Of a stretch of 64,000 nucleotides of DNA, positions 6,777 to 55,023 are shown in pieces; the stretch's first letter is position 1, and each line of letters opens with the position of its first letter. Where the stretch lies: contig JAIESQ010000013.1 of assembly GCA_019745975.1 (NCBI GenBank), positions 86,780-150,779 of the forward strand, in the 5' to 3' direction. Below the pieces are notes generated by a model. It did not search any database, was not told the origin of the DNA, and worked only from the letters and a program-made list of their open reading frames with translations. Both the position numbers and the translations under genes were made by a program. The stretch comes from Pirellulales bacterium (GTDB lineage Bacteria > Planctomycetota > Planctomycetia > Pirellulales > JAEUIK01).

Positions 6777-7796
6777 TTAGTAGCGCAGCACATAGGCCGG
6801 CGACTTGCTGAGCCGGTCGCGATTCCTGATGTACGTCAGCGTTGTCCTCGGGTCGGCGTGGCCAGCGAAGTCTTGTAGGTCGATGATATCGCTCCCTTGC
6901 TGGCGGGCGGTTGTCAGGGCCGTAACGCGGAATGAGTGGACCGTCACGTTCGGATCGAGGCGTAGATGTCGGACATACCTCTCAACCAACTTCTGAATAG
7001 CCCGCCTGGTAATTGGCTTCGCTACGAACCCCGTGGTGCCATTGGATCGGGCTGCCGTGCCGGGTCGAAACATCGGTCCAGTTGACTCTTGCCGAATACG
7101 AGCGGCATCGAGCCACGCTTCCAACCGCTCGGCCGCTTCGAGATGCAGTGGAACGCGGCGTTCCTTGCCCCCCTTCCCATGCACCTCAAGAATCTTGTGG
7201 ACGCCGGTGGTCTTGTAGCTGCCGACCTTGAGTCGTGTCAGCTCGCCGACGCGGCAGCCTGTATAGGCCAGGACGGCAAAGATGGCGCGATCGCGGACGC
7301 CGGCTGGCGTCACCTCGGAAGGCGCTTCAAGAAGTCGGCGACAATCCTCGGGTGTGAGCCCAACGGTCTTCCCGTCGCGCGGCGCCGACGGCGCAGCCAC
7401 GAAATCGGAATGCGCGGGATTGGCTCCCACAAATCCATAGGTCTGCAAATAGGAAAAGAGGGACCGCAATACCGTTAGCTTACGGCGAATGGAGCTGTTT
7501 GTGAGTCCCTGTGCTGCCAGGTGATCGCGCCAGCCCGCAACGTGATGCGGTCGTATGGCCGCAAGCTGGTCAACGTCGTTCGTGGGGTGACCGCAGAAAG
7601 TCAAGAATTGGCCGAGGTCCCGATCGTAGTTGGACCGCGTGTCCTGCGATGGCGATTTAAGAATCCAAGCTCGGGATGCTTCCTGAATGGGAGTCGTCGG
7701 ATCGGTCGCAATGATCGACGACGAATGGTTAACGATCGTCAACGATTTGGACGTTGGTGGTTGGGCAAGTTCGTTCGGGTCCATCGGATCGGTCAT
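6777..7796 (-). CDS. tyrosine recombinase / integrase
   Basis: The C-terminal catalytic region has AYTGCRVGEL (Arg), HSFRVTALT (HxxR) and GHADPRTTLTYI (His...Tyr). Confidence 0.85.
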   Translation of the reverse strand: MTDPMDPNELAQPPTSKSLTIVNHSSSIIATDPTTPIQEASRAWILKSPSQDTRSNYDRDLGQFLTFCGHPTNDVDQLAAIRPHHVAGWRDHLAAQGLTNSSIRRKLTVLRSLFSYLQTYGFVGANPAHSDFVAAPSAPRDGKTVGLTPEDCRRLLEAPSEVTPAGVRDRAIFAVLAYTGCRVGELTRLKVGSYKTTGVHKILEVHGKGGKERRVPLHLEAAERLEAWLDAARIRQESTGPMFRPGTAARSNGTTGFVAKPITRRAIQKLVERYVRHLRLDPNVTVHSFRVTALTTARQQGSDIIDLQDFAGHADPRTTLTYIRNRDRLSKSPAYVLRY

Positions 7797-9600: not shown

Positions 9601-10812
9601 GTGGGCGACGTGTTTCGCGCCGCGGGAGCCGAATTCCTGCAGCGACACGCCCATGTACTTCGCGGCGAACAACGCCGTGCGATCAAGGATCTGGCCGCCT
9701 GCCGCACCGCCGCGCTGGGCGGCCACGAAGAAGCCTGCGATGCGTGCGGCCATCGTCGCTTCGCGTACAACTCATGCCGCAATCGTCACTGCCCGAAGTG
9801 CCAAGCCTCGGCCCGCGCACGCTGGCTCGAAGCGCGCTCCGCCGAGCTGATCGACGTGCCGTACTTCCATGTCGTATTCACGCTGCCAGCGGAGTTCGGT
9901 CCTCTGGCACTTCATAATCCGCGCATGATTTATGGCCTGCTGTTTCGAGCGGCGTCCGAAACGCTCTTGCAAATCGCTGCCGACCGCAAGCACCTTGGCG
10001 CCGAGATCGGTTTTCTGGCCGTGTTGCACACCTGGGGTCAGAACCTGTTGCACCATCCGCACCTGCACTGCGTCGTGCCTTCCGGTGGACTATCCCCCAA
10101 CGGCCAAGGCTGGATCGCCGGGCGTGACGATTTCTTCTTGCCCGTACAGGTATTGAGTCGCGTGTTTCGCGGGAAGTTCATCGCCTTGGTCAAGCGTGCC
10201 TGTGAACGTGGTCAGTTGGTCTTTCCCGGCCGATTGCGCCCCTTGGAAGACCGGAACTGTTTTGAACAGCTGCTCGATCAGGCTGTCCGACAAGATTGGG
10301 TTGTCTACGCCAAACCACCATTCGGCGGCGCACCACAAGTACTCAAGTACTTGGCCCGCTACACGCACCGCGTGGCGATCGCCAACTCGCGGATCGCGAC
10401 GTTCGATGGCCAACGTGTGTCGTTCCGCTGGAAAGACTATGCCGATGATAACCAGCACAAAACGATGACCCTTGCGGCCGACGAGTTCATCCGCCGCTTT
10501 CTGATGCACGTTCTGCCGCGCGGCTTCACCCGCATCCGCTATTACGGCTTCCTGGCCAACCGCCATCGCGCGCAGAAGCTGGCCATCATCCGAGGGACGC
10601 TGGGGGCGTCGCTCACCGACGCTGCGGCCCAGTCACCGCCAGAAGCAGAAGCGCGCGCCGACGGCGAACCCGCCGGGGAGGTTTGTCCGGTCTGTAACTC
10701 AGGTCGAATCCACAAGGTAGCCATCCTGATACCTGTCGCCCCGCCACCGTTGAGCTGGCTGTTGCCAGCGGCGCATCGACACGGGCCAAGAATCGGGTGG
10801 GATACGTCGTGA
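9601..10812 (+). CDS. IS91-family (Y2 HUH) transposase
   Basis: The zinc-binding N-terminus is CRTAALGGHEEACDACGHRRFAYNSCRNRHCPKCQ, followed by FHVVFTLP, LHTWGQNLLHHPHLHCVVP and YLARYTHRVAI. I place the start at GTG 9601; the track ORF from 8917 overlaps the integrase in another frame. Confidence 0.85.
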   Translation: MGDVFRAAGAEFLQRHAHVLRGEQRRAIKDLAACRTAALGGHEEACDACGHRRFAYNSCRNRHCPKCQASARARWLEARSAELIDVPYFHVVFTLPAEFGPLALHNPRMIYGLLFRAASETLLQIAADRKHLGAEIGFLAVLHTWGQNLLHHPHLHCVVPSGGLSPNGQGWIAGRDDFFLPVQVLSRVFRGKFIALVKRACERGQLVFPGRLRPLEDRNCFEQLLDQAVRQDWVVYAKPPFGGAPQVLKYLARYTHRVAIANSRIATFDGQRVSFRWKDYADDNQHKTMTLAADEFIRRFLMHVLPRGFTRIRYYGFLANRHRAQKLAIIRGTLGASLTDAAAQSPPEAEARADGEPAGEVCPVCNSGRIHKVAILIPVAPPPLSWLLPAAHRHGPRIGWDTS

Positions 10813-11319
10813 CTCTCTTGACTCGGCTCAATCGGCTGCGACATAACATCGACGCTCTTGCGAGTGATCCACGCTCGCCTGCGCGCCGCAGGCACCACTT
10901 ATTCTTCCCATGAACCAAGTCATGTCACTCTCAGTCCGCTCTGACCGATATCGTGCCGACTTTCAGGCGCCGCCCCTTCGCGGCGCCCTCTCGGATGGGC
11001 CACTCTCGACACGGCGCGGTTTGATTGCATCTCCATAGTCGGGCCGCCCAGAGCGGTTTCGTTCAACCGGCTGTATCCGAAGTGCCGGTCCTCCGGCCAA
11101 TTACCATCGCTCACAACGCAACGCCCGCACCGCCTGAGACCGTCCGCGGCAGGGGCACTTCGGATACAGCCCTCTGGGTTAGGCGCACCATAGCAGGCCT
11201 GTGGTATCCGCGCAACGGTTTTCAATCAGGGGATCGCAACAGTAAACGTTCATTAACCATTCTTTAGGGAGATGCGTGCTAGAAAAGAAGGAGATGCTCA
11301 ATTGAATGAATAGGTCTCT

Positions 11320-17542: not shown

Positions 17543-18958
17543 ATGGCATCGGTCTACAAGCGGACGTGCAAAAACGGCAAGCCGAGCAAGTATTGGTACT
17601 TTTCCTATACGGACGAGAATGGGAAGCGCCGCATGGCGCGTGGCCTCACCGACAAGCGGCTTACCGAGCAGCTCGCGGCCAAACGCGAGGAGCAAGGGGA
17701 CCGGGTCCGTACCGGTTTAGTCGACCCGGCCGAAAAGCAACGTGCCGAAGCCCGGAAGGCGGCACTCTCATCGCATGTCGATGCGTTTGAGAACCATCTG
17801 AATAGCAAGGGCAATACGGGCAAGCACAACAAGCTGACGCTCAGTCGCATTCGTGCTGTGATTGAAGATGGGGCAATGGCGACGCTCGCCGACTTCACGG
17901 TCGAGGCCGTCGTCGAAGTTCTCCAGGACTTTCAAAAGGAAGATGACATTGGGCACCGGACATACAACCACTACGTCCAGGCGCTCGACGGCTTCGGCCG
18001 CTGGCTGGTCGCTTCCGATCGCGTGCTGAGCAACCCGCTCAAGGGTTTGCCTCGGCTCAATAGTGCCGAAGATGTACGGCACAAGCGCCGTGCGCTCTCG
18101 GCCAAGGAATTGGCCGCGCTGGTCGCCTCGGCAGAGACCAGCAAGAAAAAGGTCCAGGGCTACCCCGGCTGGCTTCGGGCGATCCTGTATCGCTTCGCCT
18201 ATCTCACCGGCCTGCGGCGGCGCGAATTGGGGAGCCTGACGACGAGCAGCTTCCAGTTGGATGATGAGACGCCGATATTGACGGTCGAGGCCGCCTGCTC
18301 GAAGCATCGCAAGAAAGACACCTTGCCGATTCATCCCGAACTCTTGGGCCTTCTCCGCGAATGGCTCCCGACACTCGATGCGGGCGCCCCACTCTTCCCG
18401 AAGTTGGAACGCAAGAAGACCTGGCGGATGGTGAAGACCGACCTCAAGGCAGTCGGCATCGAATACGAAACGGCGGAAGGCATTGCCGACTTCCATGCCT
18501 GTCGGCACTCGCACGTTTCCGGCTTGGTCAACAGCGGCGTGTCGCTGGCCCATGCCCGGCAGCTTGCCCGGCACGGCGACATTCGGATGACGATGAAATA
18601 TTTTCATGGGGACCTCCAGACGCAGGCTGAAGGACTGAGGTCGCTGCCAGGTCTCAATTCACTCGAACCGAAGTCAGAAGCGCTGCCAAAACCCGCAGCC
18701 CGCGATGCGAGCAGCGCGGACAAGGTGCAGCGCAATAGCATCGCGCCAGAGCCCCTTGGGGGTCATTCCGTGTCATTTGCTGGCACGCAAGTGGGCGACG
18801 ATCCGAGCGTCGTACCAATAAAAAACCCCTGCTCTGACAGGGGTTACGACGCCGAGGGTCACTCGGTGTCATCTGGTGGCAAAACTGCCAAAAAGTGGAG
18901 GCGGCGGGAATCGAACCCGCGTCCCGAAACGTTTCCACGCCAGCTTCTACGTGTGTAG
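17543..18958 (+). CDS. tyrosine integrase; the 3' extent is uncertain because the ORF reads into ssrA
   Basis: The sequence starts MASVYKRTCKNGKPSKYWYFSY..., with catalytic motifs YLTGLRRREL, HACRHSHVSGL and ARHGDIRMTMKYFH. There is no stop until 18958, which is 63 nt inside the tmRNA gene. Confidence 0.8.
   Translation: MASVYKRTCKNGKPSKYWYFSYTDENGKRRMARGLTDKRLTEQLAAKREEQGDRVRTGLVDPAEKQRAEARKAALSSHVDAFENHLNSKGNTGKHNKLTLSRIRAVIEDGAMATLADFTVEAVVEVLQDFQKEDDIGHRTYNHYVQALDGFGRWLVASDRVLSNPLKGLPRLNSAEDVRHKRRALSAKELAALVASAETSKKKVQGYPGWLRAILYRFAYLTGLRRRELGSLTTSSFQLDDETPILTVEAACSKHRKKDTLPIHPELLGLLREWLPTLDAGAPLFPKLERKKTWRMVKTDLKAVGIEYETAEGIADFHACRHSHVSGLVNSGVSLAHARQLARHGDIRMTMKYFHGDLQTQAEGLRSLPGLNSLEPKSEALPKPAARDASSADKVQRNSIAPEPLGGHSVSFAGTQVGDDPSVVPIKNPCSDRGYDAEGHSVSSGGKTAKKWRRRESNPRPETFPRQLLRV
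18818..18845 (-). terminator. intrinsic terminator downstream of ssrA
   Basis: The minus strand reads AACCCCTG-TCAGAG-CAGGGGTT followed by TTTTTATT, about 50 nt past the tmRNA 3' end. Confidence 0.6.
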
Positions 18959-19258
18959 CCGATAGTTTGAGTCTCGCTCTGGCAGCCCCCATCGGCAGGG
19001 TCCGCTTCGAGCCAGCCGGGAACGGTTTTTAACCTCGGGCGTGCCCAGCAGTGACCCGAGGCGAGCTGGAATTGTCAACCGACTTTTGGGCCTCTCCAGC
19101 GGGAGCCCCGCAGTCGGGGATGCCTATTTAACTAGGCAGCCAAAGCATAGGAACCTTCGGCAATTGAAGGTATTGGTCGGCTTTTTAACGTGGCCAGCTG
19201 ACCAACCACGACACGCCACTTGCGCTTCAATCCGTCCGGTCGAACCCAGTTCGCCCCC
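18896..19258 (-). ncRNA. ssrA: tmRNA (transfer-messenger RNA)
   Basis: The 5' end GGGGGCGAACUGGGUUCGAC pairs with the 3' end CGCCUCC-A, giving an acceptor stem with a G3:U pair. The T-arm is GCGGGUUCGAUUCCCGC. An internal tag frame GCC GAA GGU UCC UAU GCU UUG GCU GCC UAG (19161-19132) encodes AEGSYALAA-stop. Confidence 0.9.
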
Positions 19259-19869: not shown

Positions 19870-19897
19870 GCACTGCTTCTGCGAAGCAGTGGCACAC
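19870..19897. repeat. REP unit (family 1)
   Basis: GCACTGCTTCTGCGAAGCAGTGGCACAC has a 9-bp stem and 3-nt loop. It is identical over 28 nt to 23911-23938. Confidence 0.85.
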
Positions 19898-20972: not shown

Positions 20973-22841
20973 TCAGCGCGATTGTCGGTTGCCCGTGCGC
21001 GATGCCCTGGCCAGATTGTCCGGGCGCGCCAGGAGCACCAGGTCGTGTCGCCGCAAGAAGCGGCGCTGCCGCGCCAACTCACGAAACCCACCAGGCAGCC
21101 TCGCACGCACCTGATCGAGGTCCTTGTCGCGCACCAGCAGCACGGGATTGCGCGACTGGGCGACCTGCTGTTCAAACGCATCGAGACTGTCGAAGTGGCG
21201 TACTTGATTGCCGGAGTAGAACACCAGGCCTGGCTCAAAATGGTTCAGTGTTACCCAATCGGCCGCGGGGCCGACCTGCTCGCGCGCCACGGTTGCGAAG
21301 CCTGCGCTGGTCTGGTGCCTGGCGACGCGCACGGCGGCCACGGAAAAAAGTGCTACCGCAAAGACAACACCCATCACCATCAAGGTGTGCACGGCCCGGG
21401 TGATTCGTTCCTGCATTGCGAAGCGCCAGGCCAGCGCGCCGCCGACCAGCGGGATCAAACCGATCAGGCACAGCAGTGTTTCGCCGGGGAGCAAGATGTA
21501 GGCCACGATCGGCAGCACAACGACGAGCCCAATGCCAACACAGACGTACGTGCCGAGTGCCAGCGCAACCAGCTTACGACTGACTTCGCGCGGGCGAGCG
21601 ATCCAGCAGTCGAGAAACACGCCGGTCAACAGCGCCAGCGCCGGATACGCCGGCAGCACATAGTTCGGCAGCTTCGTACGGCAGAGCGAGAAGAAGACGA
21701 AGTACGTCGCCGCCCAGCAAGCGACGAACAGGTCGCTGGCGTGTATCGCGTCGCGCTGGTGCACGCGCCGCCACCAGGTGACGAGCGTCAACAGCAAGAG
21801 CATCGACCAGGGAAAGAACGTCACGTGCACGACCGCGGGATGGTAGAAGATCGTGCCGCGATGCCCTTCGAGCGGCTGCAAGAAGCGATTCACGTTGTGC
21901 TTGCCAAGAAAGCCGGCAAGCCATTGGCCATCGGTTTCGAGCCCCACGGCGAGATACCAAGGCAAGGCGACGAGCGCCACAACCGCCATGCCCGTCATCG
22001 GCCGCAGCGCCCAGAGTACCTTCACGACGTGGCTGGGGCGGAGGCAATCGGCCACGGTCCAGCAAACGGCGCGCACGCGTGATCGCCAGCCCGGCGGGTT
22101 GCTCGCGCAACCCGTCTCGGCGCGCGGCTCCCGGGCCATGACTAGCAGGAAGGTCGCCAACACACCGATCGGCAATACCACGCCCACGGGGCCCTTGGTT
22201 AGCACGGCCAGCCCCAACAGGGCGTACATCGCGATCCACCAGCCAATCGAGCGCGGAAGGTAGCGTCGCCAGCGCGGGTCGAAGTGCCGAGCCGGCTCTT
22301 TGGCGACACTGCTGGACAAGCCAGCAGTGGCACCCAACGTCGCGTCACCGTCGGCGATCGACAGCCAGCCGGCCGAGCCGGCCACGCCGCGCACATAGGC
22401 CAGCGCGCCGGCCGTGATGAAGAAGATCAGAGTCGAGTCAGGCGTCGAGGCTCGGCCCACGACGTCGAACATCAGGCTCGTGGCCAGAATGATCGCGGCC
22501 CAGAAACCTACCTGCGGTCGATAGAGCAACCGGCCGAGGTGATACACCATGAGCACGGTACCGATGGCCAAAAGCGCCGAGGGGAGCCGCGCCGCCAGCT
22601 CGTTGACCCCCAGCACGTGATACGACGAGAGCATCAGCCAGTAGAGCAGCACCGGTTTGTCGGTCCGCAACTCGTGGTTGAAGGTCGGCACGATCCAGTC
22701 GCCGCGGGCGAACATCTCGGCGCCGCAAGCGGCGTTCTTGGGTTCATCCTCGTCGAACAAAGTGGCCGACCCCAGATTCGCCAGCAGAACCAACGCGGCG
22801 ATCGAGACAATCAACACTTGTTGACGGGCGGATGATAGCAT
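20973..22841 (-). CDS. GT39/ArnT-like membrane glycosyltransferase (PMT_2 type)
   Basis: This is a polytopic 622-aa protein whose N-terminal loop DEPKNAACGAEMFARGDWIVPTFNHELRTDKPVLLYW is typical of ArnT/PMT family proteins. Confidence 0.75.
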   Translation of the reverse strand: MLSSARQQVLIVSIAALVLLANLGSATLFDEDEPKNAACGAEMFARGDWIVPTFNHELRTDKPVLLYWLMLSSYHVLGVNELAARLPSALLAIGTVLMVYHLGRLLYRPQVGFWAAIILATSLMFDVVGRASTPDSTLIFFITAGALAYVRGVAGSAGWLSIADGDATLGATAGLSSSVAKEPARHFDPRWRRYLPRSIGWWIAMYALLGLAVLTKGPVGVVLPIGVLATFLLVMAREPRAETGCASNPPGWRSRVRAVCWTVADCLRPSHVVKVLWALRPMTGMAVVALVALPWYLAVGLETDGQWLAGFLGKHNVNRFLQPLEGHRGTIFYHPAVVHVTFFPWSMLLLLTLVTWWRRVHQRDAIHASDLFVACWAATYFVFFSLCRTKLPNYVLPAYPALALLTGVFLDCWIARPREVSRKLVALALGTYVCVGIGLVVVLPIVAYILLPGETLLCLIGLIPLVGGALAWRFAMQERITRAVHTLMVMGVVFAVALFSVAAVRVARHQTSAGFATVAREQVGPAADWVTLNHFEPGLVFYSGNQVRHFDSLDAFEQQVAQSRNPVLLVRDKDLDQVRARLPGGFRELARQRRFLRRHDLVLLARPDNLARASRTGNRQSR

Positions 22842-23910: not shown

Positions 23911-23938
23911 GCACTGCTTCTGCGAAGCAGTGGCACAC
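23911..23938. repeat. REP unit (family 1)
   Basis: It is identical over 28 nt to 19870-19897 and in the same orientation. Confidence 0.85.
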
Positions 23939-23974: not shown

Positions 23975-24520
23975 CTAGCGCGGGATATTCAGGTCGCGGA
24001 TCGTCAGCAGCGTGCTGAGCTTGGCGCCGTGGACGGCAAATGCGTCGGCGCCTCCCTCCAACCGATCGACGATTGCCAGCACGCGGTCGACCTTGAGGCC
24101 GAAGTCGCGTGCCCGCTCGAGCGCCGCCATCGCCGAGCCGCCGGTGGTGATGACGTCCTCGACGATCACGGCCGAGTTGCCCGGCTGCACGGGCCCTTCG
24201 ACGAACTTGTTGGTGCCGTGTCCCTTGGCTTCTTTACGCACCATGAAGCCGACCAGCGGCAGGCCGCGGACGCCAGCCAAGGTGACGATCGCGGCCGTGA
24301 TCGGATCGGCGCCGATCGCCAATCCGCCCACGGCGGCCGGCAGCGATTCGCCCAAGAGCTCGAGCATCCCTTCGGCCACGAGCCGCGCGCCGGCGGCGTC
24401 GAGCGTGATCTGCTTGAGATCGAGGTAGAAGTTCGCCTTCTTCCCCGACGCCAAAGTGAAATCGCCGAGCTTGAGGGCCTTGGCGTGAATCAAATCGAGC
24501 AACTGCTGGCTGTCGTACAC
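23975..24520 (-). CDS. pyrE: orotate phosphoribosyltransferase
   Basis: FTLASGKKANFYLDLK is followed by the PRPP-binding loop VIVEDVITTGGS. Confidence 0.9.
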   Translation of the reverse strand: MYDSQQLLDLIHAKALKLGDFTLASGKKANFYLDLKQITLDAAGARLVAEGMLELLGESLPAAVGGLAIGADPITAAIVTLAGVRGLPLVGFMVRKEAKGHGTNKFVEGPVQPGNSAVIVEDVITTGGSAMAALERARDFGLKVDRVLAIVDRLEGGADAFAVHGAKLSTLLTIRDLNIPR

Positions 24521-32742: not shown

Positions 32743-32879
32743 CTAGAAGCAGTTTCAAAACCGGCGATGAACCGACGTCGGGTGCCACTGCTAGAAGCGT
32801 CTAGCAGTGCTGTGTCGAACCTGGCACTGCTGGGCAAGCCAGCAGTCGCACCCAAATCAGGTTTTGAAACTGATTCTAG
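32743..32879. repeat. 137-bp REPIN-like composite element (family 1), copy 1
   Basis: Terminal inverted repeats CTAGAAGCAGTTTCAAAACC and GGTTTTGAAACTGATTCTAG enclose two inverted REP hairpins (CACTGCTAGA-AGCG-TCTAGCAGTG and CACTGCTGG-GCAAG-CCAGCAGTC). The element exactly fills the gap between two convergent stop codons. Confidence 0.85.
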
Positions 32880-34681
32880 GGATTCCAACCCTGGGTAACC
32901 CACAGCTCGAAATTCTCAAGCTGGCTGATCGGTTCGCGGCGGTCGAGCGGCACGTGGGAATACGTTTGAAGATGTGCGAGCAAGAAGACTTTGACTTGCA
33001 GCATCCACGTTTCAAGGTAGGGGCGCGGGCGCCAACCCGTTTTGGGATGCGGCGCGGGGTCGATTCGTGGCGCTAAGCTCCCGGGCGGGATAGACCGCCA
33101 GCCTCCCCCGACCAGCCAGACACGATGGCCGGATCGCAGCGCCGCTTCGATCTGGGCCACGAGCGGCGCCAGCGGCTCGCGCTCGGTCATGCGCTGCTTC
33201 AGCAAATCAAATCGGTGCAGCGCTGTAGTCTCCAAAGAGGGCAATGTCGTCCACGCCGCGGCGCCGTGGTAGTAACGGTGGAACGTCACGCCGGCATACC
33301 AAGGGCTGACGATGACCAGGTCGCCCGGCTCGGCGCGTTCGTTCAGCCGCGCGGCGATCTGGTCGAGATTGGATTGTCGCTGGTCGAGGATGTCGAAATC
33401 GGCCGACAGGCCCAGCACCAGTCCAAGTGCCAACAGGGCGATGCGCCACGCGCCGGCATTGCGCAATCCGGCCAGGGCGGCGTCGAGGGCCGCGGCCAAT
33501 AGCGCGATGGTCGGCAAATAGTGCCAGGCGCGCGCCGGCACGCGCATCCACCAGAAAAACAGGAGCATCCCCGGCACCGCCAGCGCGACGACCAAGACCG
33601 CGAACGCTGAGATTTCACTTGCAGGATGGCGCTCGCGGCTAGCTGCAGGGACCTCCGGGAGCGCGTCCCTTCGAACACGCTGTGTTCGCATCGCATGGCA
33701 GCCGCGCCAGGCGACGATCGATGCGGCAGCGCAGCAACCGCCCCAGAGCCAGGCAAATGCCGATGTCGGCTCGGCGAGCGCATCAAGGAGGCGTTGCCAG
33801 ACGTAACTGAAACTCACGTCCTCTAAGGTTAAGGCCGACCACTCGCTCGCCGCCCTCACCTGGCCAGCGTACGGCAGCAACGAGGTCGCCGCGGCCAATC
33901 CCAGCGCGATAGCGATCGCGGCCAGCTTCCAGCGGCCGGATGCCAAGGCGACGAGTGTCGCGGCGGTCACAAGTGCGGCAACCAGGACTGTGCTGGAATA
34001 AACGGTCTGCACGCTGGCGATTAGTGAGAGGGCCGCCAGCATCGCGCGTGGCCATGTCGGCCGCTCGAGCAGCTTGGCAACCAGGCCAAAGGAAAGCACC
34101 ACCCACAGCACACCTAAGCCATAGGGGCGAACCGCATCGCCGTAGCGGATCGAGATCGGGCTCATGCCCCAGAGCGCCAGCGCGACCGTAGGCCCAGTGC
34201 GATACAAAGCGAGCGTACAACCGGCCATTGCCGCCAAAATGGCGATTCCCACCAGGAAACCGAACTTGCGCAACGATGCATCGCTGTCGCCGAAGACGCG
34301 CGACCAGGCGCGGAAGGCCGCGGTGGCCAGCGGCGGAAAACTGTCGTTAGGCATTGCCTGCCAGACGTCGCTCCACGCCGGCAGTGTCGCCAGCGCGGCG
34401 GTTTGGGCTTCGTCGCGCCAGAGCGGTCCGGCATGACGGTAGTTGCGGAGGTGTAACCCTAGTATCAGCAGCATGGCCGCGAGCGCCGCGATCCATTCGG
34501 CCGCCCGAGCGAGCCGCGCGGCGTCAAACGCGATGCTGCCGCGCGACGACGCCGGGAGCGGCGTTGCGCTGGTCGTCGGTTTTCTTGGACTGTCGATCAT
34601 GGGCCGATTGTGCAGGTCGATTGCAAAGAGAGTACCATGACGCCTGCCGGTGACCGCCGCCCAAATGGCAGTTTCGCTCAA
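32876..34681 (-). CDS. polytopic membrane protein, GT-C (ArnT/PMT-like) glycosyltransferase candidate
   Basis: This 601-aa protein has many TM segments followed by a C-terminal soluble domain. Its overall architecture resembles GT39/GT83 enzymes, but I saw no diagnostic motif. Confidence 0.45.
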   Translation of the reverse strand: MSETAIWAAVTGRRHGTLFAIDLHNRPMIDSPRKPTTSATPLPASSRGSIAFDAARLARAAEWIAALAAMLLILGLHLRNYRHAGPLWRDEAQTAALATLPAWSDVWQAMPNDSFPPLATAAFRAWSRVFGDSDASLRKFGFLVGIAILAAMAGCTLALYRTGPTVALALWGMSPISIRYGDAVRPYGLGVLWVVLSFGLVAKLLERPTWPRAMLAALSLIASVQTVYSSTVLVAALVTAATLVALASGRWKLAAIAIALGLAAATSLLPYAGQVRAASEWSALTLEDVSFSYVWQRLLDALAEPTSAFAWLWGGCCAAASIVAWRGCHAMRTQRVRRDALPEVPAASRERHPASEISAFAVLVVALAVPGMLLFFWWMRVPARAWHYLPTIALLAAALDAALAGLRNAGAWRIALLALGLVLGLSADFDILDQRQSNLDQIAARLNERAEPGDLVIVSPWYAGVTFHRYYHGAAAWTTLPSLETTALHRFDLLKQRMTEREPLAPLVAQIEAALRSGHRVWLVGGGWRSIPPGSLAPRIDPAPHPKTGWRPRPYLETWMLQVKVFLLAHLQTYSHVPLDRREPISQLENFELWVTQGWNP

Positions 34682-39369: not shown

Positions 39370-41184
39370 ATGGCCCAGGCGAGAATCTTCAAACAGGCTA
39401 GAAGTAGCTTCCAAACCGACATTGAACCGACGTCGGGTGCCACTGCCAGCTCGTCTAGCAGTGCTGTGTCGAGCAATTCACTGCTGGGCAAGCCAGCAGT
39501 GGCACCCAAACCAGGTTTTGAAACTGCTTCTAGTGTAAACGGGACGCGGCCGCATGCGTGCGCAAGACTGATCCTGCGCGGCCTCTTGGTTTGTGCGTGG
39601 TTGGCCAGCGCCACGAATGCTCGCGCCGGCGAGCCGCCCGCCGCATCGGGGGCCGCGCCATTGCCGGCCGCCGTTGCCCGGCAACTTCGCGAACGGCTCG
39701 CATCGGGCACGCTTCGCTGGGGAGGCGACGCCGAAGGGGGGGCCCCTTATCAACTGCGCGATCCGCACGATCCCGAGCGCGTGATCGGCTTCGAAGTCGA
39801 GTTGGTCGACGCCGTGGCCGACAAGCTTGCCCGTTGGCTCGGTCGCCCGTTGGCGACCGAGTTCGTGCAGTACGAATGGACGAGCCTGCCGCTGGGCTTG
39901 GACAAACACGACTTCGACCTGATCGCCAGCGGCTTCGAGGGCAGCCCGCAGTGGTCGGCGGCGTATCGGCTGTCGCGGCCGTATTACGTCTGCCATCAAG
40001 AGCTGGCGATTCGCCGGACGGATGCCGCGCGGATCACGACCCTCGACGATTGCCGTGATCGAACCGTCGGCACCTTGGCGGCCAGCGCGGCTGAACGCCT
40101 GTTGGCCGCCAGCGAATTTACCAACATCGTCGCCTACGACGGGCAAGTCGAGCCGTATCTCGATCTGGAACTCGGGCGCGTCGACGCGGTGCTGTTGGAC
40201 TCGCCGATCACGACGTATTACGGCCGCACGAATCCCAAGTTTGCGTTTCTGCCGGCGCCGCAGGGCCAGGTCGAATATGTGCTGGCGGTTGCCCGCGGCG
40301 ACGAAGCGCTGGCGGCGGCGCTCGACGTGGCCCTGGGTGAAGTGATTCGCAACGGCCAGCTTCGCGAGATTCTCAGGCGCTGGCGGTTGTGGAATCCGGC
40401 GCAGGCGGCGCTGGCGCGGCCCCCCAATCGCGAGGCGGAATTGGCAGGGCTGGGCTTCGATGCGGCGGGCCAACCGCTGGCCGGTATGTCCGATCCGCCG
40501 AGCGATGCGATCGACGTGAACCTCGTGGCCGCCTCGGCCAAGGCATGGACCTTTTCGCAGTACGCGCCGCTGCTCTTGGCGGCCGCCGGCACCACGGTGG
40601 CGCTCTCGGTCACGAGCATGGCGCTGGCGATGGCTGGCGGATTGGTGGTGAGCTTGTGCCGGCTGTACGGGCCGCGACCGCTACAAGCCGCGGCCTTGGG
40701 CTACGTCGAGTTCTTTCGCGGTATTCCGCTGCTCTTGGTGTTGTTCTTCCTCTACTTCGGACTGGCGCACTACGGTGTCGACCTGCCGGCGACGCGCACC
40801 GCGGTGCTCGGCTTCGGGCTGACGTACGCGGCGTACGAAGCCGAAGTTTATCGCAGCGCCATCCGCTCGGTGCCGCGCGGCCAGTGGGAAGCGGCGCTGG
40901 CGCTGGGGATGTCGGGGCCGCAAGCGTTCCGCAAGGTGATCTTTCCGCAGGCGCTGCGCACGGCGCTGGCGCCGATGACGAACGACTTCGTCGCCCTCTT
41001 CAAAGACACGAGCCTGGTGAGCGTGATCGCCGTGCGCGAGCTGACCAAAGAGTACCTGATCCTGTCGCGATCGAGCCTGAAGTTCGTCGAGCTGGGGCTC
41101 TTGACCGCCGCGCTCTACCTGGCGATGTCGATCCCGCTGGGGTACCTGTCGCGCTGGCTGGAACGGCGCTGGGGGGCGGCGTGA
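39370..41184 (+). CDS. fused amino-acid ABC transporter substrate-binding domain + permease
   Basis: The type 3 SBP-like part is LRWGGDAEGGAPYQL...GFEVELVDAVA...FDLIASGF. The permease part has the EAA-like loop YAAYEAEVYRSAIRSVPRGQWEAALALGMS. The start is problematic (see findings). Confidence 0.8.
   Translation: MAQARIFKQARSSFQTDIEPTSGATASSSSSAVSSNSLLGKPAVAPKPGFETASSVNGTRPHACARLILRGLLVCAWLASATNARAGEPPAASGAAPLPAAVARQLRERLASGTLRWGGDAEGGAPYQLRDPHDPERVIGFEVELVDAVADKLARWLGRPLATEFVQYEWTSLPLGLDKHDFDLIASGFEGSPQWSAAYRLSRPYYVCHQELAIRRTDAARITTLDDCRDRTVGTLAASAAERLLAASEFTNIVAYDGQVEPYLDLELGRVDAVLLDSPITTYYGRTNPKFAFLPAPQGQVEYVLAVARGDEALAAALDVALGEVIRNGQLREILRRWRLWNPAQAALARPPNREAELAGLGFDAAGQPLAGMSDPPSDAIDVNLVAASAKAWTFSQYAPLLLAAAGTTVALSVTSMALAMAGGLVVSLCRLYGPRPLQAAALGYVEFFRGIPLLLVLFFLYFGLAHYGVDLPATRTAVLGFGLTYAAYEAEVYRSAIRSVPRGQWEAALALGMSGPQAFRKVIFPQALRTALAPMTNDFVALFKDTSLVSVIAVRELTKEYLILSRSSLKFVELGLLTAALYLAMSIPLGYLSRWLERRWGAA
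39398..39533. repeat. REPIN-like composite element (family 1), copy 2
   Basis: By my hand alignment it is about 88% identical to 32743-32879 over the full length, with the same terminal repeats. It lies inside the 5' end of the ABC ORF. Confidence 0.85.
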
Positions 41185-50936: not shown

Positions 50937-51152
50937 GGTCGATTCCTCGTCGCGTCGCTGCGGGGAAAGCCAGTGGCCGTCAACCCGGCTCTACCGACGA
51001 ATCGGCCATGTGCGAAGCGCGGCTGCAGCTTTTCGCGCGATCGGCCGACACTCGGCACCAACACCAAGTCATGCGCGAACCAATCACGCGCACCAGGCAA
51101 ACTATTGCGCGCGCAAGTGAGCGCTAGCAGTGACTTGGCGTGCTTCCCCGGG

Positions 51153-51276
51153 GTGCCACTGCTTCGCAGAAGCAGTGCGCGCTGATCGCTCGAATCGGCG
51201 ATGAAGACGGCACTGCTTGCCAGCTTGCGGCGTCTCAAGCGGTGCTGCATCCACCGGCTGGCAAGCAGTGGCACAC
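51153..51276. repeat. REP cluster (family 1)
   Basis: GTGCCACTGCTTC-GCA-GAAGCAGTGCGC lies at 51153-51180. A long hairpin follows: CACTGCTTGCCAGC (51211-51224) pairs with GCTGGCAAGCAGTG (51257-51270), then GCACAC. Confidence 0.8.
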
Positions 51277-54199: not shown

Positions 54200-54280
54200 G
54201 TGTGCCACTGCTTGGCAACGGCAGTGCCGAACAGCTCTTTCGTATCTTAACGCGGGGCGCACTGCCGTTGCCAAGCAGTG
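54200..54280. repeat. REPIN flanking the RAYT gene (family 1)
   Basis: Perfect 22-bp arms CACTGCTTGGCAACGGCAGTGC (54206-54227) and GCACTGCCGTTGCCAAGCAGTG (54259-54280). Each arm is itself CACTGC-N9-GCAGTG. Confidence 0.9.
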
Positions 54281-54912
54281 CCGTGATTACTCGGTGCGTC
54301 GACGACCACCAGATGTGGCATCGTTCTGTCGACCTGAAGTGGTATCGCATTCTTTCCGTACCACTCAGCCGCGCTCGACCAAAACCAATCGTCTGGACGC
54401 GAAACCAGACCTCGTTGGACGGGGTTGTTATGAATGTACTCCAGCAAATCGTGAGCCGTCCGCGGCTCGTACACATTCCGATCCTGACCCGGGCCCGCCT
54501 GCCAAAAGCGGCGATAAGTGCGGCTCCGAGTTCGTACAGTCAATCTCTCGAGGAACCGCGATTGATGTTCGACGAGCCATGCAAGGGCCCTCTGTCCAAC
54601 CGGTCGTTTGATATCGGCGAGAATTCCTGAGACCTTTTCGTCGGACTTGCGAGGCCACACCAGCAGATGGACGTGCTCGGGCATAATGACCCAACCCCAC
54701 AAGTGGAAGCCGTGTTTGGCTCGCGCTTCCTCAATCGACTCGACGACCATCCATCGCGTGCGATCCTTGCTAAGCAAAGGCCAGCGTTGATAGCACGAAA
54801 AAGTAAGGAAATGCGCATGGCCAAGTTCGTCGTAGTGACGAATTGTTTTGCGAATTCCACGTAATGGTTTCGTGATTGGTCGCATAGCCGTAGCCACCGA
54901 ATAGCGCTCCAT
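54247..54912 (-). CDS. REP-associated tyrosine transposase (RAYT; IS200/IS605-like Y1 HUH transposase)
   Basis: The HUH motif is PEHVHLLVW and the catalytic Tyr region is LLEYIHNNPVQRGLV. The gene is flanked by REP palindromes, and its 3' end runs into the left palindrome. Confidence 0.85.
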   Translation of the reverse strand: MERYSVATAMRPITKPLRGIRKTIRHYDELGHAHFLTFSCYQRWPLLSKDRTRWMVVESIEEARAKHGFHLWGWVIMPEHVHLLVWPRKSDEKVSGILADIKRPVGQRALAWLVEHQSRFLERLTVRTRSRTYRRFWQAGPGQDRNVYEPRTAHDLLEYIHNNPVQRGLVSRPDDWFWSSAAEWYGKNAIPLQVDRTMPHLVVVDAPSNHGTAWQRQCAPR

Positions 54913-54944
54913 CGTGCCGCGGATTCAGCGCTCAAATCGCAAAG

Positions 54945-55023
54945 CACTGCTTCTACATAGCAGTGGCCAGGCCGAGGGTAATCCAACCCATTCGATCTCT
55001 GCTACTACGAAGCAGTGGCACAC
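54945..55023. repeat. REP units on the other RAYT flank (family 1)
   Basis: CACTGC-TTCTACATA-GCAGTG lies at 54945-54965. A degenerate unit ends in GAAGCAGTGGCACAC (to 55023). Confidence 0.8.

Follow-up and report, generated by a model that had tools for sequence, protein, structure and literature searches.

The longest ORF at the locus, on the minus strand of a 64-kb stretch of Pirellulales DNA analysed here in full (the window), encodes 221 aa and is a REP-associated tyrosine transposase (RAYT) gene of a known kind, accompanied by the REPs expected for such a system (Table 1). Comparison with the homologue P0003 suggests that the true start is likely the methionine at 54885 (MRPITKP...), which would give a product of 212 aa. 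The HUH motif region reads VIMPEHVHLLVW with PEHVHLLVW present, and the HUH and YIHNNP motifs that an earlier reading of the sequence alone had placed in this ORF are both intact in the translation. Residues H80, H82, H161, N163 and P164 are invariant among RAYT homologues in alignments of 12 and of 35 sequences, Y159 is invariant in the 12 and nearly invariant in the 35, and the HUH, WQ and Y---NP motifs are unchanged across the 35 homologues.

Hairpins lie on both sides of the gene. The left flank had been described as a perfect palindrome with 22-bp arms, each arm itself a CACTGC-N9-GCAGTG hairpin, and this description was borne out, with arms at 54206-54227 and 54259-54280 that are 22 nt long, 100% complementary and each contain the hairpin. 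About 12 codons at the end of the ORF had been thought to be encoded by a palindrome arm; we find that the last 11 codons overlap the arm at 54259-54280, and the resulting tail (TAWQRQCAPR...) is also present in the two closest homologues. Alone the outer left unit forms a weak hairpin with a 6-bp stem (z = -1.4), and jointly the two left units form a 22-bp hairpin of -31.6 kcal/mol (z = -6.3). The two further units proposed for the right flank were located at 54945-54965, with an exact core, and at 54997-55017, with one stem mismatch (CTCTGC); the former is the ortholog of the upstream unit of a related locus, L121, in which a foot is present.

Table 1 Features of the RAYT locus and REP units elsewhere in the window
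Feature	Position	Strand	Remarks
REP singlet, GTGTGC foot	19871..19897	-	41 nt downstream of GT2 gene
REP singlet, GGGTGC foot	22307..22335	-	In frame inside PMT_2-like ORF
REP singlet, GTGTGC foot	23912..23938	-	37 nt downstream of ORF 23975-24520
REP doublet, feet outward, GGGTGC feet	32780..32853	.	Between convergent genes
REP doublet, feet outward, GGGTGC feet	39435..39507	.	
REP heterodoublet, feet outward	51151..51276	.	One GGGTGC and one GTGTGC foot; second unit with 14-bp stem
Outer REP unit, downstream of RAYT	54200..54226	+	Foot GTGTGC (54200-54205) and CACTGC-N9-GCAGTG; foot away from gene
RAYT (TnpAREP-like HUH/Y1) gene	54247..54912	-	Longest ORF, 221 aa
Inner REP hairpin without foot	54260..54280	+	Inverted partner of 54206-54226; within last 11 ORF codons
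Codon of putative catalytic Tyr159	54436..54438	-	YIHNNP motif (EYIHNNP)
HUH motif codons, His80-Val81-His82	54667..54675	-	H80 and H82 invariant in alignment A1
Inner REP hairpin, upstream of RAYT	54945..54965	-	Exact core, degenerate foot CCTGGC
Outer REP unit, upstream of RAYT	54997..55023	-	Foot GTGTGC (minus strand, 55023-55018); foot away from gene

REP units in the window and in other assemblies

The locus had been read as an 824-bp unit bounded by 14-bp inverted repeats. These repeats are exact, the 14-mer GTGTGCCACTGCTT occupying 54200-54213 and its perfect reverse complement 55010-55023, but they are not the termini of a mobile unit, as the 14-mer is found again at three gene-less loci (19884, 23925 and 51263; five occurrences in the window, none being expected from shuffles). 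Each marks the head of a REP unit, which consists of a G[G/T]GTGC foot and then a CACTGC...GCAGTG hairpin. With inverted REP units on both sides of the RAYT gene and their conserved feet pointing outward, the locus is a 'REPtron'.

Within the window the pattern CACTGC-N3-30-GCAGTG occurs 10 times against 0.16 expected, and G[GT]GTGCCACTGC with at most one mismatch 11 times against 0.74 expected. The window holds 13 REP units in total, and the 11 that carry a foot are distributed over eight loci, either singly or as doublets with their feet outward. All 11 feet fit G[GT]GTGC, and 6 of them are GGGTGC. One of the eight loci lies in frame within an ORF and the other seven are extragenic or flank the RAYT gene; folding energies of the doublets range from -22.7 to -40.4 kcal/mol (z = -4.4 to -6.3). 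Confinement of the hairpin to a few loci had been named beforehand as grounds for doubting its relationship with the RAYT, and it is in fact enriched beyond the gene flanks, within the window as well as in further Planctomycetota assemblies. Since the hairpins that flank the RAYT also recur elsewhere in the window, the gene is a genuine instance of an already known system, and one to be expected. When the window was searched in general terms for hairpins with a GTGC foot, no REP family emerged besides the CACTGC core. Rfam contains no family matching the REP hairpin, its sole match in the window being a tmRNA.

The cognate REP is a hairpin with a CACTGC/GCAGTG stem base, a variable but complementary inner stem and a loop of 3-5 nt, and it is preceded immediately on its 5' side by G[G/T]GTGC, a foot that is conserved and unpaired. 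A pattern scan of the collection, which shows distribution and not abundance, gave at least 120 REP-bearing loci. Among the matches listed, the CACTGC-core REP is present in dozens of Planctomycetota assemblies, and the fixed 6-bp stem is lengthened by at least 2 Watson-Crick pairs in 125 of 161 units (6.7% in shuffles), the extending pairs having several different sequences among the 125. Adjacent REP pairs in other assemblies were feet-outward in 24 of 34 listed cases and feet-inward in 0, with doublet spacers mostly of 12-31 nt. Among the listed matches, TGG stems are the main partners of GGGTGC feet, and TTC, TTG or TC stems those of GTGTGC feet. A RAYT gene was found at 1 of the 120 REP-bearing loci listed, the other 119 being without a transposase gene.

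Protein family and stability of the gene

The NCBIfam model NF047646 (REP_Tyr_transpos) scores the window protein at 93.4 bits, above its cut-off of 80, the clade-A homologues P0003, P0095, P0026 and P0067 as well as P0089 at 90-97, and a clade-B example (L093) at 75.6, slightly under the cut-off. The IS200 equivalog model NF033573 fails with 16.3 against a cut-off of 55, and Pfam Y1_Tnp (PF01797) matches the N-terminal half only, at 21.6 bits against a gathering threshold of 23 (E = 2.6e-4). The sole match in a sequence search of the PDB was TnpAREP of E. coli (4ER8), which is also the top Foldseek match of the AF2 model (pLDDT 86) with E = 2.4e-9 and TM 0.57/0.71 (TMt 0.71), the IS transposases ISDra2 and IS608 TnpA following behind it at E ~5e-5 or weaker. 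Grouping with ordinary IS200 transposases had been stated as a finding that would speak against a RAYT; the opposite was found. K2Y37_03160, a protein of a Pirellulales MAG, is 99% identical to the window protein. The motifs EHVH, WQ, YIHNNP and C-terminal WSS fit class 2 and are common to subclasses 2.1, 2.4 and 2.6, Y---NP being the signature of class-2 TnpAY1 (PMC6006769). Subclass 2.1 (Group 1) is reported to lack REPs.

The relative L121, whose RAYT has 77% protein identity to that of the window and whose neighbourhood has 85-87% nucleotide identity, has the same gene order (PSD1-RAYT-DUF1501-HAD-ThiS) and the same REP layout. From this shared neighbourhood and layout the RAYT gene looks to be vertically inherited at a stable chromosomal position, one relative having been compared, and the conserved synteny argues that the gene does not move. 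Through a compensatory C/G swap the 22-nt palindrome stays perfect in both sequences. The REP doublet at 51151-51276 is absent from the orthologous L121 site, and this 'empty site' could reflect a deletion there rather than an insertion in the window lineage. The window carries one RAYT copy, and no close relatives of it were found on plasmids among 72,556 plasmid records. G+C of the RAYT gene is 6-10 points below that of its neighbours, which could point to a foreign origin; its relatives show the same offset.

These observations bear on a rival explanation under which the locus would be an insertion sequence of the IS200 type that moves autonomously (TnpA only, or a 'TIRtron'), with the inverted repeats and hairpins as the ends of a mobile 824-bp unit. 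The Pfam match is indeed named 'Transposase IS200 like' but the dedicated IS200 model fails and the protein has the class 2 Y---NP motif in place of Y[IV]ENQ (PMC6006769). The 14-bp inverted repeats are perfect at both ends but, as described above, the supposedly terminal 14-mer also stands at loci that lack the gene, and the subterminal hairpins resemble IS200/IS605 ends but are found at 119 of 120 listed loci without any transposase gene. A G+C under that of the neighbours would suit an element of this kind, yet the gene is single-copy in 64 kb, no TnpB lies beside it (the neighbours are DUF1501 and PSCyt/PSD1 genes), and the insertion site and its neighbours are kept in a genome only ~86% identical. 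We regard the insertion sequence reading as largely refuted and give it very little credence. By contrast it is highly probable that the window contains a domesticated, fixed RAYT (TnpAREP, class 2 Y1 HUH) inside its own REPtron with cognate CACTGC-hairpin REPs that bear a G[G/T]GTGC foot, the gene being apparently immobile and chromosomally fixed.

Other assignments were tried and rejected. IS200/IS605 TnpA was set aside on the failed NF033573 model, the YIHNNP motif, the single window copy, the synteny with L121 and the lack of tnpB. A TIRYT or TIRtron, which has long terminal inverted repeats and not REPs, was set aside on the recurrence of the repeats, as REP heads, without the gene. Class 3 TnpAY1, known from Planctomycetes, Acidobacteria and Proteobacteria, are marked by Y----Q (YV[VI]xEQ) and W[TA] in the protein and by CnGA at the foot (Quentin et al. 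2018, PMC6006769); the window protein is not of this class since it has YIHNNP, WQ (as FWQ) and a GTGC foot.

Foot types, RAYT clades and possible host roles

Four further contigs carry homologues at 77, 69, 67 and 62% identity, each of them between GTGTGC-CACTGC units whose feet point outward, and the layout of the window locus is repeated in L121-L124. Across 80 metagenomic homologue loci G[GT]GTGC is gene-distal in 56 of 75 upstream and 53 of 69 downstream flanks, the reverse orientation being seen in 19 of 75 and 17 of 69 respectively, and in an unbiased hairpin scan of homologue flanks GTGC accounted for 54 of 165 distal feet. Over ~85 homologous loci the GTGC foot is constant and the stem sequence varies with the protein clade. 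Clade-A loci have GTGTGC feet and clade-B loci (L093/Symmachiella-like) GGGTGC feet, with one foot of each type at the clade-B locus L206.

The gene-distal feet on both sides of the RAYT in ~75% of flanks, among divergent homologues, and the change of stem with RAYT clade are left unexplained if the hairpins are simply selected host elements (terminators, mRNA 3' stabilisers or protein-binding sites) beside which a RAYT, maybe an inactive relic, lies incidentally. Such an account also sits poorly with an ORF and catalytic motifs that are intact and conserved. It does gain from the REP unit being near-identical in dozens of assemblies of different planctomycete families while doublet spacers are not conserved, a pattern that fits selection on the unit itself. 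The singlets at 19871 and 23912 sit 37-41 nt past stop codons on the transcribed strand, and REPs of E. coli affect termination and mRNA stability (PMC6006769). A host role and RAYT-dependent spread can however coexist, and we consider a host role with merely incidental RAYT adjacency to be improbable.

Within the preferred RAYT/REPtron reading, the chances appear evenly balanced as to whether the window RAYT serves the GTGTGC subfamily only, with a second RAYT, of clade B and encoded outside the window, acting on the GGGTGC units (6 of 11). The foot types divide by clade as above, they go with different stems among the matches listed, and the feet of one doublet are normally of equal type, all of which point to two enzymes. 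The 51151-51276 doublet on the other hand mixes both types and the 64-kb window itself contains no clade-B RAYT; with their common CACTGC stem base, cross-recognition of the foot types is possible. In a search seeded with the clade-B RAYT, the best 120 matches included no further RAYT of the source MAG, a result that is uninformative. As 6 of the 11 feet are GGGTGC, which elsewhere accompanies a different RAYT clade, the window protein may serve only part of the REP population, and its pairing with one or other foot subtype is inferred rather than observed.

Relation to known systems and implications

The best sequence and fold match of the window protein is E. coli TnpAREP (yafM; 4ER8; the REP/BIME 'REPtron'; Quentin subclass 2.2/Bertels Group 2). 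Both proteins have HUH and a single Tyr in Y---NP, and both genes lie between inverted REP hairpins dispersed through the chromosome (here through the 64-kb window), are single-copy (here within 64 kb) and are not plasmid-borne (here as judged from 72,556 plasmid records); in both systems an unpaired, conserved foot precedes each REP hairpin on its 5' side. Protein identity is however just ~20%, the foot is G[GT]GTGC in the window and GTAG in E. coli, and the window type is longer (~197-221 aa compared with 165 aa) with a conserved C-terminal W-x-W-SS...VDRT extension. Stems in the window are perfect and 8-9 bp long, and they lack the bulge on which E. coli TnpAREP depends (PMC8266576). The canonical REP foot is a 5' GT[AG]G tetranucleotide (PMC6006769), whereas the foot is GTGC in the window and in most homologue flanks, so that the cleavage-site rules of E. 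coli may not transfer. This mismatch bears on the REP type and not on the protein family.

The RAYT-REPIN systems of Pseudomonas and Stenotrophomonas (Bertels Groups 2 and 3; subclass 2.5) likewise show inverted REP doublets folding into long hairpins, several REP subfamilies together, each with its own RAYT clade elsewhere (a second RAYT being predicted here), and evidence of vertical inheritance of the RAYT. The window system differs in its phylum, its foot and its YIHNNP motif instead of YI[VI]ANP, and its REP unit is common, nearly unchanged, to many species and families, whereas REPs have been described as species-specific (PMC6006769). The HUH/Y1 fold is shared with IS200/IS605 TnpA (IS608, ISDra2), which recognises a hairpin and a 5' guide on single-stranded DNA much as the window RAYT might. 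Those elements are nonetheless distinct in their Y motif, and the window protein fails their model, is single-copy within 64 kb and syntenic, is without TnpB and has hairpins that are dispersed without the gene.

RAYT/REPIN biology had been taken in the sequence-only reading as established for gamma-proteobacteria, but RAYTs are not confined there. NCBI already labels Planctomycetota homologues 'REP-associated tyrosine transposase', and GTAG-type REP families have been reported in Planctomyces brasiliensis, P. limnophilus and Rhodopirellula baltica within a survey that treats GTAG repeats as a class associated with transposase genes (Di Nocera et al. 2013, PMC3733652). Like those families the window units are short tagged palindromic repeats in Planctomycetes, but the tags that define the families always end in G (GTAG, GYAG, GTRG, GTMG, GTGG) and that of the window is GTGC, a distinction drawn here from the tags (PMC3733652). 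Class 3 TnpAY1 resemble the window system in being Y1 HUH proteins of Planctomycetes with flanking repeated hairpins that are sometimes abundant in the genome. On this REP sequence, or on REPs and REPINs in Planctomycetota, the literature we found comprised general surveys only, and the supplements of PMC6006769 give no planctomycete names.

By analogy with E. coli TnpAREP (4ER8; PMC8266576) the RAYT would bind the folded hairpin and foot on single-stranded DNA. Cleavage near the hairpin could then involve a metal bound by the HUH residues His80 and His82 together with Tyr159, which would form a 5'-phosphotyrosine link. Rejoining of strands may lead to REP units and feet-outward doublets (REPINs) being excised, copied or rearranged in trans, while the RAYT gene itself would remain in place. 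Binding, cleavage and current activity we infer from this related enzyme.

The GTGC foot in place of GT[AG]G appears to be undescribed, no counterpart having been found in the literature consulted, with the planctomycete families of Di Nocera et al. compared by their tags. We would put slightly below even the chance that GTGC-footed REPs are a third, undescribed tag superfamily beside GTAG/GTGG and CGTC. Such a superfamily would be served by large RAYT clades (thousands of metagenome proteins), with the foot invariant and the stem co-evolving with the protein; two Planctomycetota clades ~43% identical would share the CACTGC stem base and be told apart by a single foot position (GTGTGC or GGGTGC), both types occurring in the window, and the unit would be nearly unchanged across families. 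If true, conservation of a REP across families, contrary to species-specificity, hints at an added host function or at an unusually tight constraint between enzyme and substrate.

RAYT/REPIN biology has been worked out nearly all in Gammaproteobacteria. The locus offers a clean, predicted enzyme-substrate pair from outside the proteobacteria. Its hairpin is short and perfect, its foot differs, and among natural variants the stem co-varies with the protein and the foot does not. With this pair and this variation the recognition rules are directly testable by foot and stem swaps among clade A, clade B and distant relatives. The pattern of G[GT]GTGC plus hairpin is invisible to searches built on GT[AG]G feet. 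The RAYT/REP reading accounts for a repeat that is met again and again in assemblies of planctomycetes, and it draws attention to REPs inserted in frame within genes.

A class-2 type RAYT gene and its flanks

The open reading frame picked out as a RAYT (REP-associated tyrosine transposase) from sequence alone encodes 221 aa with the HUH and tyrosine motifs (VIMPEHVHLLVW and LLEYIHNNPVQRG), and profile searches confirm the class, giving 93.4 bits for the NCBIfam REP-associated tyrosine transposase model (cut-off 80) as against 16.3 bits for the IS200/IS605 model (cut-off 55), so that it is not an ordinary IS200 transposase. Its Pfam Y1_Tnp score of 21.6 lies slightly below the threshold of 23. 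A sequence search of the PDB matched a sole chain, 4ER8 of E. coli TnpAREP, which was also the best structural match (E 2.4e-9) of an AlphaFold prediction (35 homologues as input, pLDDT 86), with the ISDra2 and IS608 transposases around four orders of magnitude weaker. Across homologue alignments the H-V-H, F-W-Q and H-x-N-P motifs do not vary, and Y159, the motif tyrosine, is invariant or nearly so. Y---NP is the signature of class 2 (TnpAREP; Quentin et al. 2018, PMC6006769), the type that the window protein shares with E. coli TnpAREP, its nearest fold. The planctomycete 'class 3' of that study has a Y----Q motif and a CnGA foot and is ruled out as its identity.

Homologues are ~197 aa in length and the window ORF is longer at both ends, with an upstream alternative start and a C-terminal tail; the true start is likely the Met at 54885. 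The tail, encoded by a REP arm, is common to the window protein and its two closest relatives in the alignment. As the sequence-only reading had proposed, the left flank holds a perfect palindrome with 22-nt arms (54206-54227 / 54259-54280), each arm being CACTGC-N9-GCAGTG, and the inner arm encodes the last 11 codons (~12 in that reading), TAWQRQC being the arm read in-frame. That reading was also right about two further right-flank units (54945-54965 and 54997-55017, the latter with one mismatch) and about exact 14-bp inverted repeats, GTGTGCCACTGCTT at 54200-54213 and its perfect reverse complement at 55010-55023, but it took the repeats for the boundaries of an 824-bp unit when they are merely two REP heads that recur elsewhere in the window (5 exact copies of the 14-mer versus 0 in 100 shuffles).

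The gene has 55.9% G+C and a GC3 of 0.59, versus ~66% and 0.80-0.84 in its neighbours. RAYT genes of clade A, the clade of the window protein, lie 4-9 points below the surrounding G+C (the window gene, L121 3680-4318, L122 10001-10591 and L123 10001-10699, the last three on contigs compared here); L093, an example of the Symmachiella-like clade B, has no such offset.

tblastn found 1 RAYT copy in the window, no TnpB is present near it, and a plasmid collection contained no close relative, just six distant ones, all at <30% identity. On L121, the closest relative contig with flanks (RAYT protein 77% and DNA ~86% identical), the gene order PSCyt/PSD1 - RAYT - DUF1501 - HAD - ThiS is kept and the REP layout matches, with GTGTGCCACTGC... 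upstream, a hairpin in the ORF 3' end and ...GCAGTGGCACAC downstream. On these grounds the window RAYT behaves not as an insertion sequence but in the way that Bertels et al. (2017, PMC5581495) describe for RAYTs that are domesticated.

REP units within the window

The REP unit is asymmetric, with a conserved foot G[G/T]GTGC directly 5' of a hairpin with stem base CACTGC/GCAGTG. The hairpin motif is enriched beyond the gene flanks: the window holds 11 footed units versus 0.74 expected (foot GTGTGC in 5, GGGTGC in 6), and CACTGC-N3-30-GCAGTG occurs 10 times versus 0.16 expected. When folded as ssDNA the dispersed singlets have stems of 9 bp (z about -3.5) and the doublets give long hairpins (z = -4.4 to -6.3), while the outer left unit of the gene folds weakly alone and forms a 22-bp hairpin with the inner unit.

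Coordinates of the RAYT gene and dispersed REP units (window positions)
Feature	Position	Strand	Detail
RAYT gene	54247-54912	-	between two feet-outward REP units, plus two footless inner hairpins
REP singlet	19871
REP singlet	22307-22335		GGGTGC foot + 9-bp stem; within ORF 20973-22841 (-)
REP singlet	23912
Inverted doublet	32780-32853		feet outward
Inverted doublet	39435-39507		feet outward
Inverted doublet	51151-51276		feet outward

Comparison with L121 shows changes in REP content. At its orthologous ThiS-downstream intergenic site (7264-7289) ~136 nt that include the third doublet are missing, an insertion or deletion of unpolarised direction between ~86% identical genomes. Between the 3' palindrome of the window RAYT (54206-54280) and that of L121 (4285-4360) a C->G change in one arm is matched by G->C in the other, and because of this compensatory change the 22-nt palindrome is perfect in both. 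Upstream of the gene the window carries one outer unit more than L121, and its orthologue of the footed unit upstream of the L121 gene no longer has a foot. On L122 a ~166-bp tandem duplication (10592-10930) comprises the RAYT 3' end and the downstream REP unit.

The singlet with the 9-bp stem lies in-frame in a 622-aa PMT_2/GT39-like membrane glycosyltransferase, where it encodes ...TLGATAGLSSSV... and looks like a tolerated insertion; the Pfam PMT_2 match ends at residue 160, shortly before it. Two ~135-nt composite elements (32744-32880 and 39413-39535, 86% mutual identity) each carry a feet-outward doublet inside outer inverted arms, CTAGAAGCAGTTTCAAAACC ... GGTTTTGAAACTG(A/C)TTCTAG, and are a larger MITE-like unit around a REPIN (inverted REP doublet). 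A tmRNA gene (18893-19258 (-); Rfam RF00023, 162 bits) lies ~600 nt from the first singlet.

REPs and RAYTs in other genomes

Searching species-representative genomes with the pattern CACTGC-N7-14-GCAGTGGCAC gave at least 120 loci. Among the matches listed 93/120 were in assemblies labelled Planctomycetota by the MAG taxonomy as given (Pirellulales, Lacipirellulaceae, Thermoguttaceae, Planctomycetaceae and Phycisphaerae), and an extended stem was present at 82/93 of these versus 6/27 other loci; the remaining non-Planctomycetota matches look like chance. Stems were extended by at least 2 pairs in 125/161 units listed versus 6.7% of shuffles, and since the extending pairs covary in sequence (TGG/CCA, TTC/GAA, TTG/CAA, TC/GA) the hairpin is supported. 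Among the same matches a RAYT gene was present at 1/120 loci, adjacent pairs were feet-outward in 24/34 and feet-inward in 0/34 cases, and doublet spacers were mostly 12-31 nt and not conserved from assembly to assembly. The commonest unit listed, CACTGCTGG[A/G]CAAGCCAGCAGTGGCACCC, is near-identical in many assemblies, which is unusual because REPs are described as species-specific (PMC6006769).

Canonical planctomycete-type REPs also occur in six MAG contigs (L012, L031, L062, L070, L086, L115) labelled Enterobacteriaceae, Thermodesulfobacteriota, Deltaproteobacteria or unclassified, reflecting either mis-binned contigs or spread outside the phylum. Two units, L037 7814-7844 and L043 1599-1629, have a foot on both sides of one hairpin (GTGCCACTGC...GCAGTGGCAC) and resemble the double-foot REPs of RAYT subclass 2.4.

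Three independent lines of sequence comparison support a real RAYT-REP link, namely homologue flanks, foot orientation and the relation of stem to clade. Feet-outward footed units also flank clade-A homologues in unrelated neighbourhoods (L122, 62%; L123, 67%; L124, 69%) and likewise L133 and L178 (clade A, 47-50% identity). Around homologue genes (35-69% protein identity) at 80 metagenomic loci the foot was strongly biased in orientation, G[GT]GTGC being gene-distal in 56/75 flanks upstream and 53/69 downstream, with the reverse orientation in 19/75 and 17/69; foot density near the gene was 4.4x that >600 nt away. An unbiased perfect-hairpin scan returned GTGC as 54/165 gene-distal feet, with GGTG the runner-up at 17. 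Across protein clades the foot is constant and the stem varies: clade A has GTGTGC with CACTGC, clade B (L093, L204-206) GGGTGC with CACTGC, clade-B relatives GGGTGC with CACTGG, and other clades GGGTGC with CATGCC, CACGG, CCCAGG, CGCACC or CCCACC. Distant homologues on metagenome contigs L162-L203 (35-41% identity) have hairpins with a GGGTGC foot and very different G+C-rich stems (GGGTGC-CCCAGGTTCG..., GGGTGC-CGCACCCTTCGG..., GGGTGC-CCCATC...), several followed by T-rich runs.

Relation to known systems and predicted activity

That RAYT genes can be flanked by REPs is established from earlier work (Nunvar 2010; Bertels and Rainey 2011; Ton-Hoang and Messing 2012). Planctomycete homologues are already named RAYTs by NCBI's pipeline, and a clade-B protein is identical to 'REP-associated tyrosine transposase [Symmachiella dynata]'. 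RAYTs and REPs have also been surveyed across phyla, with GTAG-type REPs listed for three planctomycetes in PMC3733652; given all this the window RAYT/REP belongs to an already known kind. The tags given in PMC6006769 and PMC3733652 comprise GTAG with its G-ending variants, GTGG, CGTC and CnGA. Our search of the literature on REP tags found no description of a GTGC foot, nor did a search for this REP sequence or its breadth across Planctomycetota. The REP search of Quentin et al. used a GT[AG]G rule (PMC6006769) and would thus have missed GTGC-footed REPs.

E. coli TnpAREP binds folded single-stranded REPs, needs a 5' guide motif, and uses a tyrosine to cut DNA and join it again (PMC6006769, PMC8266576). 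By analogy the window protein would most likely recognise the G[GT]GTGC foot and CACTGC-based stem on ssDNA, and may act on REP units and doublets in trans. Because the foot types of the window pair elsewhere with two RAYT clades, we put at roughly even the chance that this genome encodes a clade-B RAYT in addition, outside the window.
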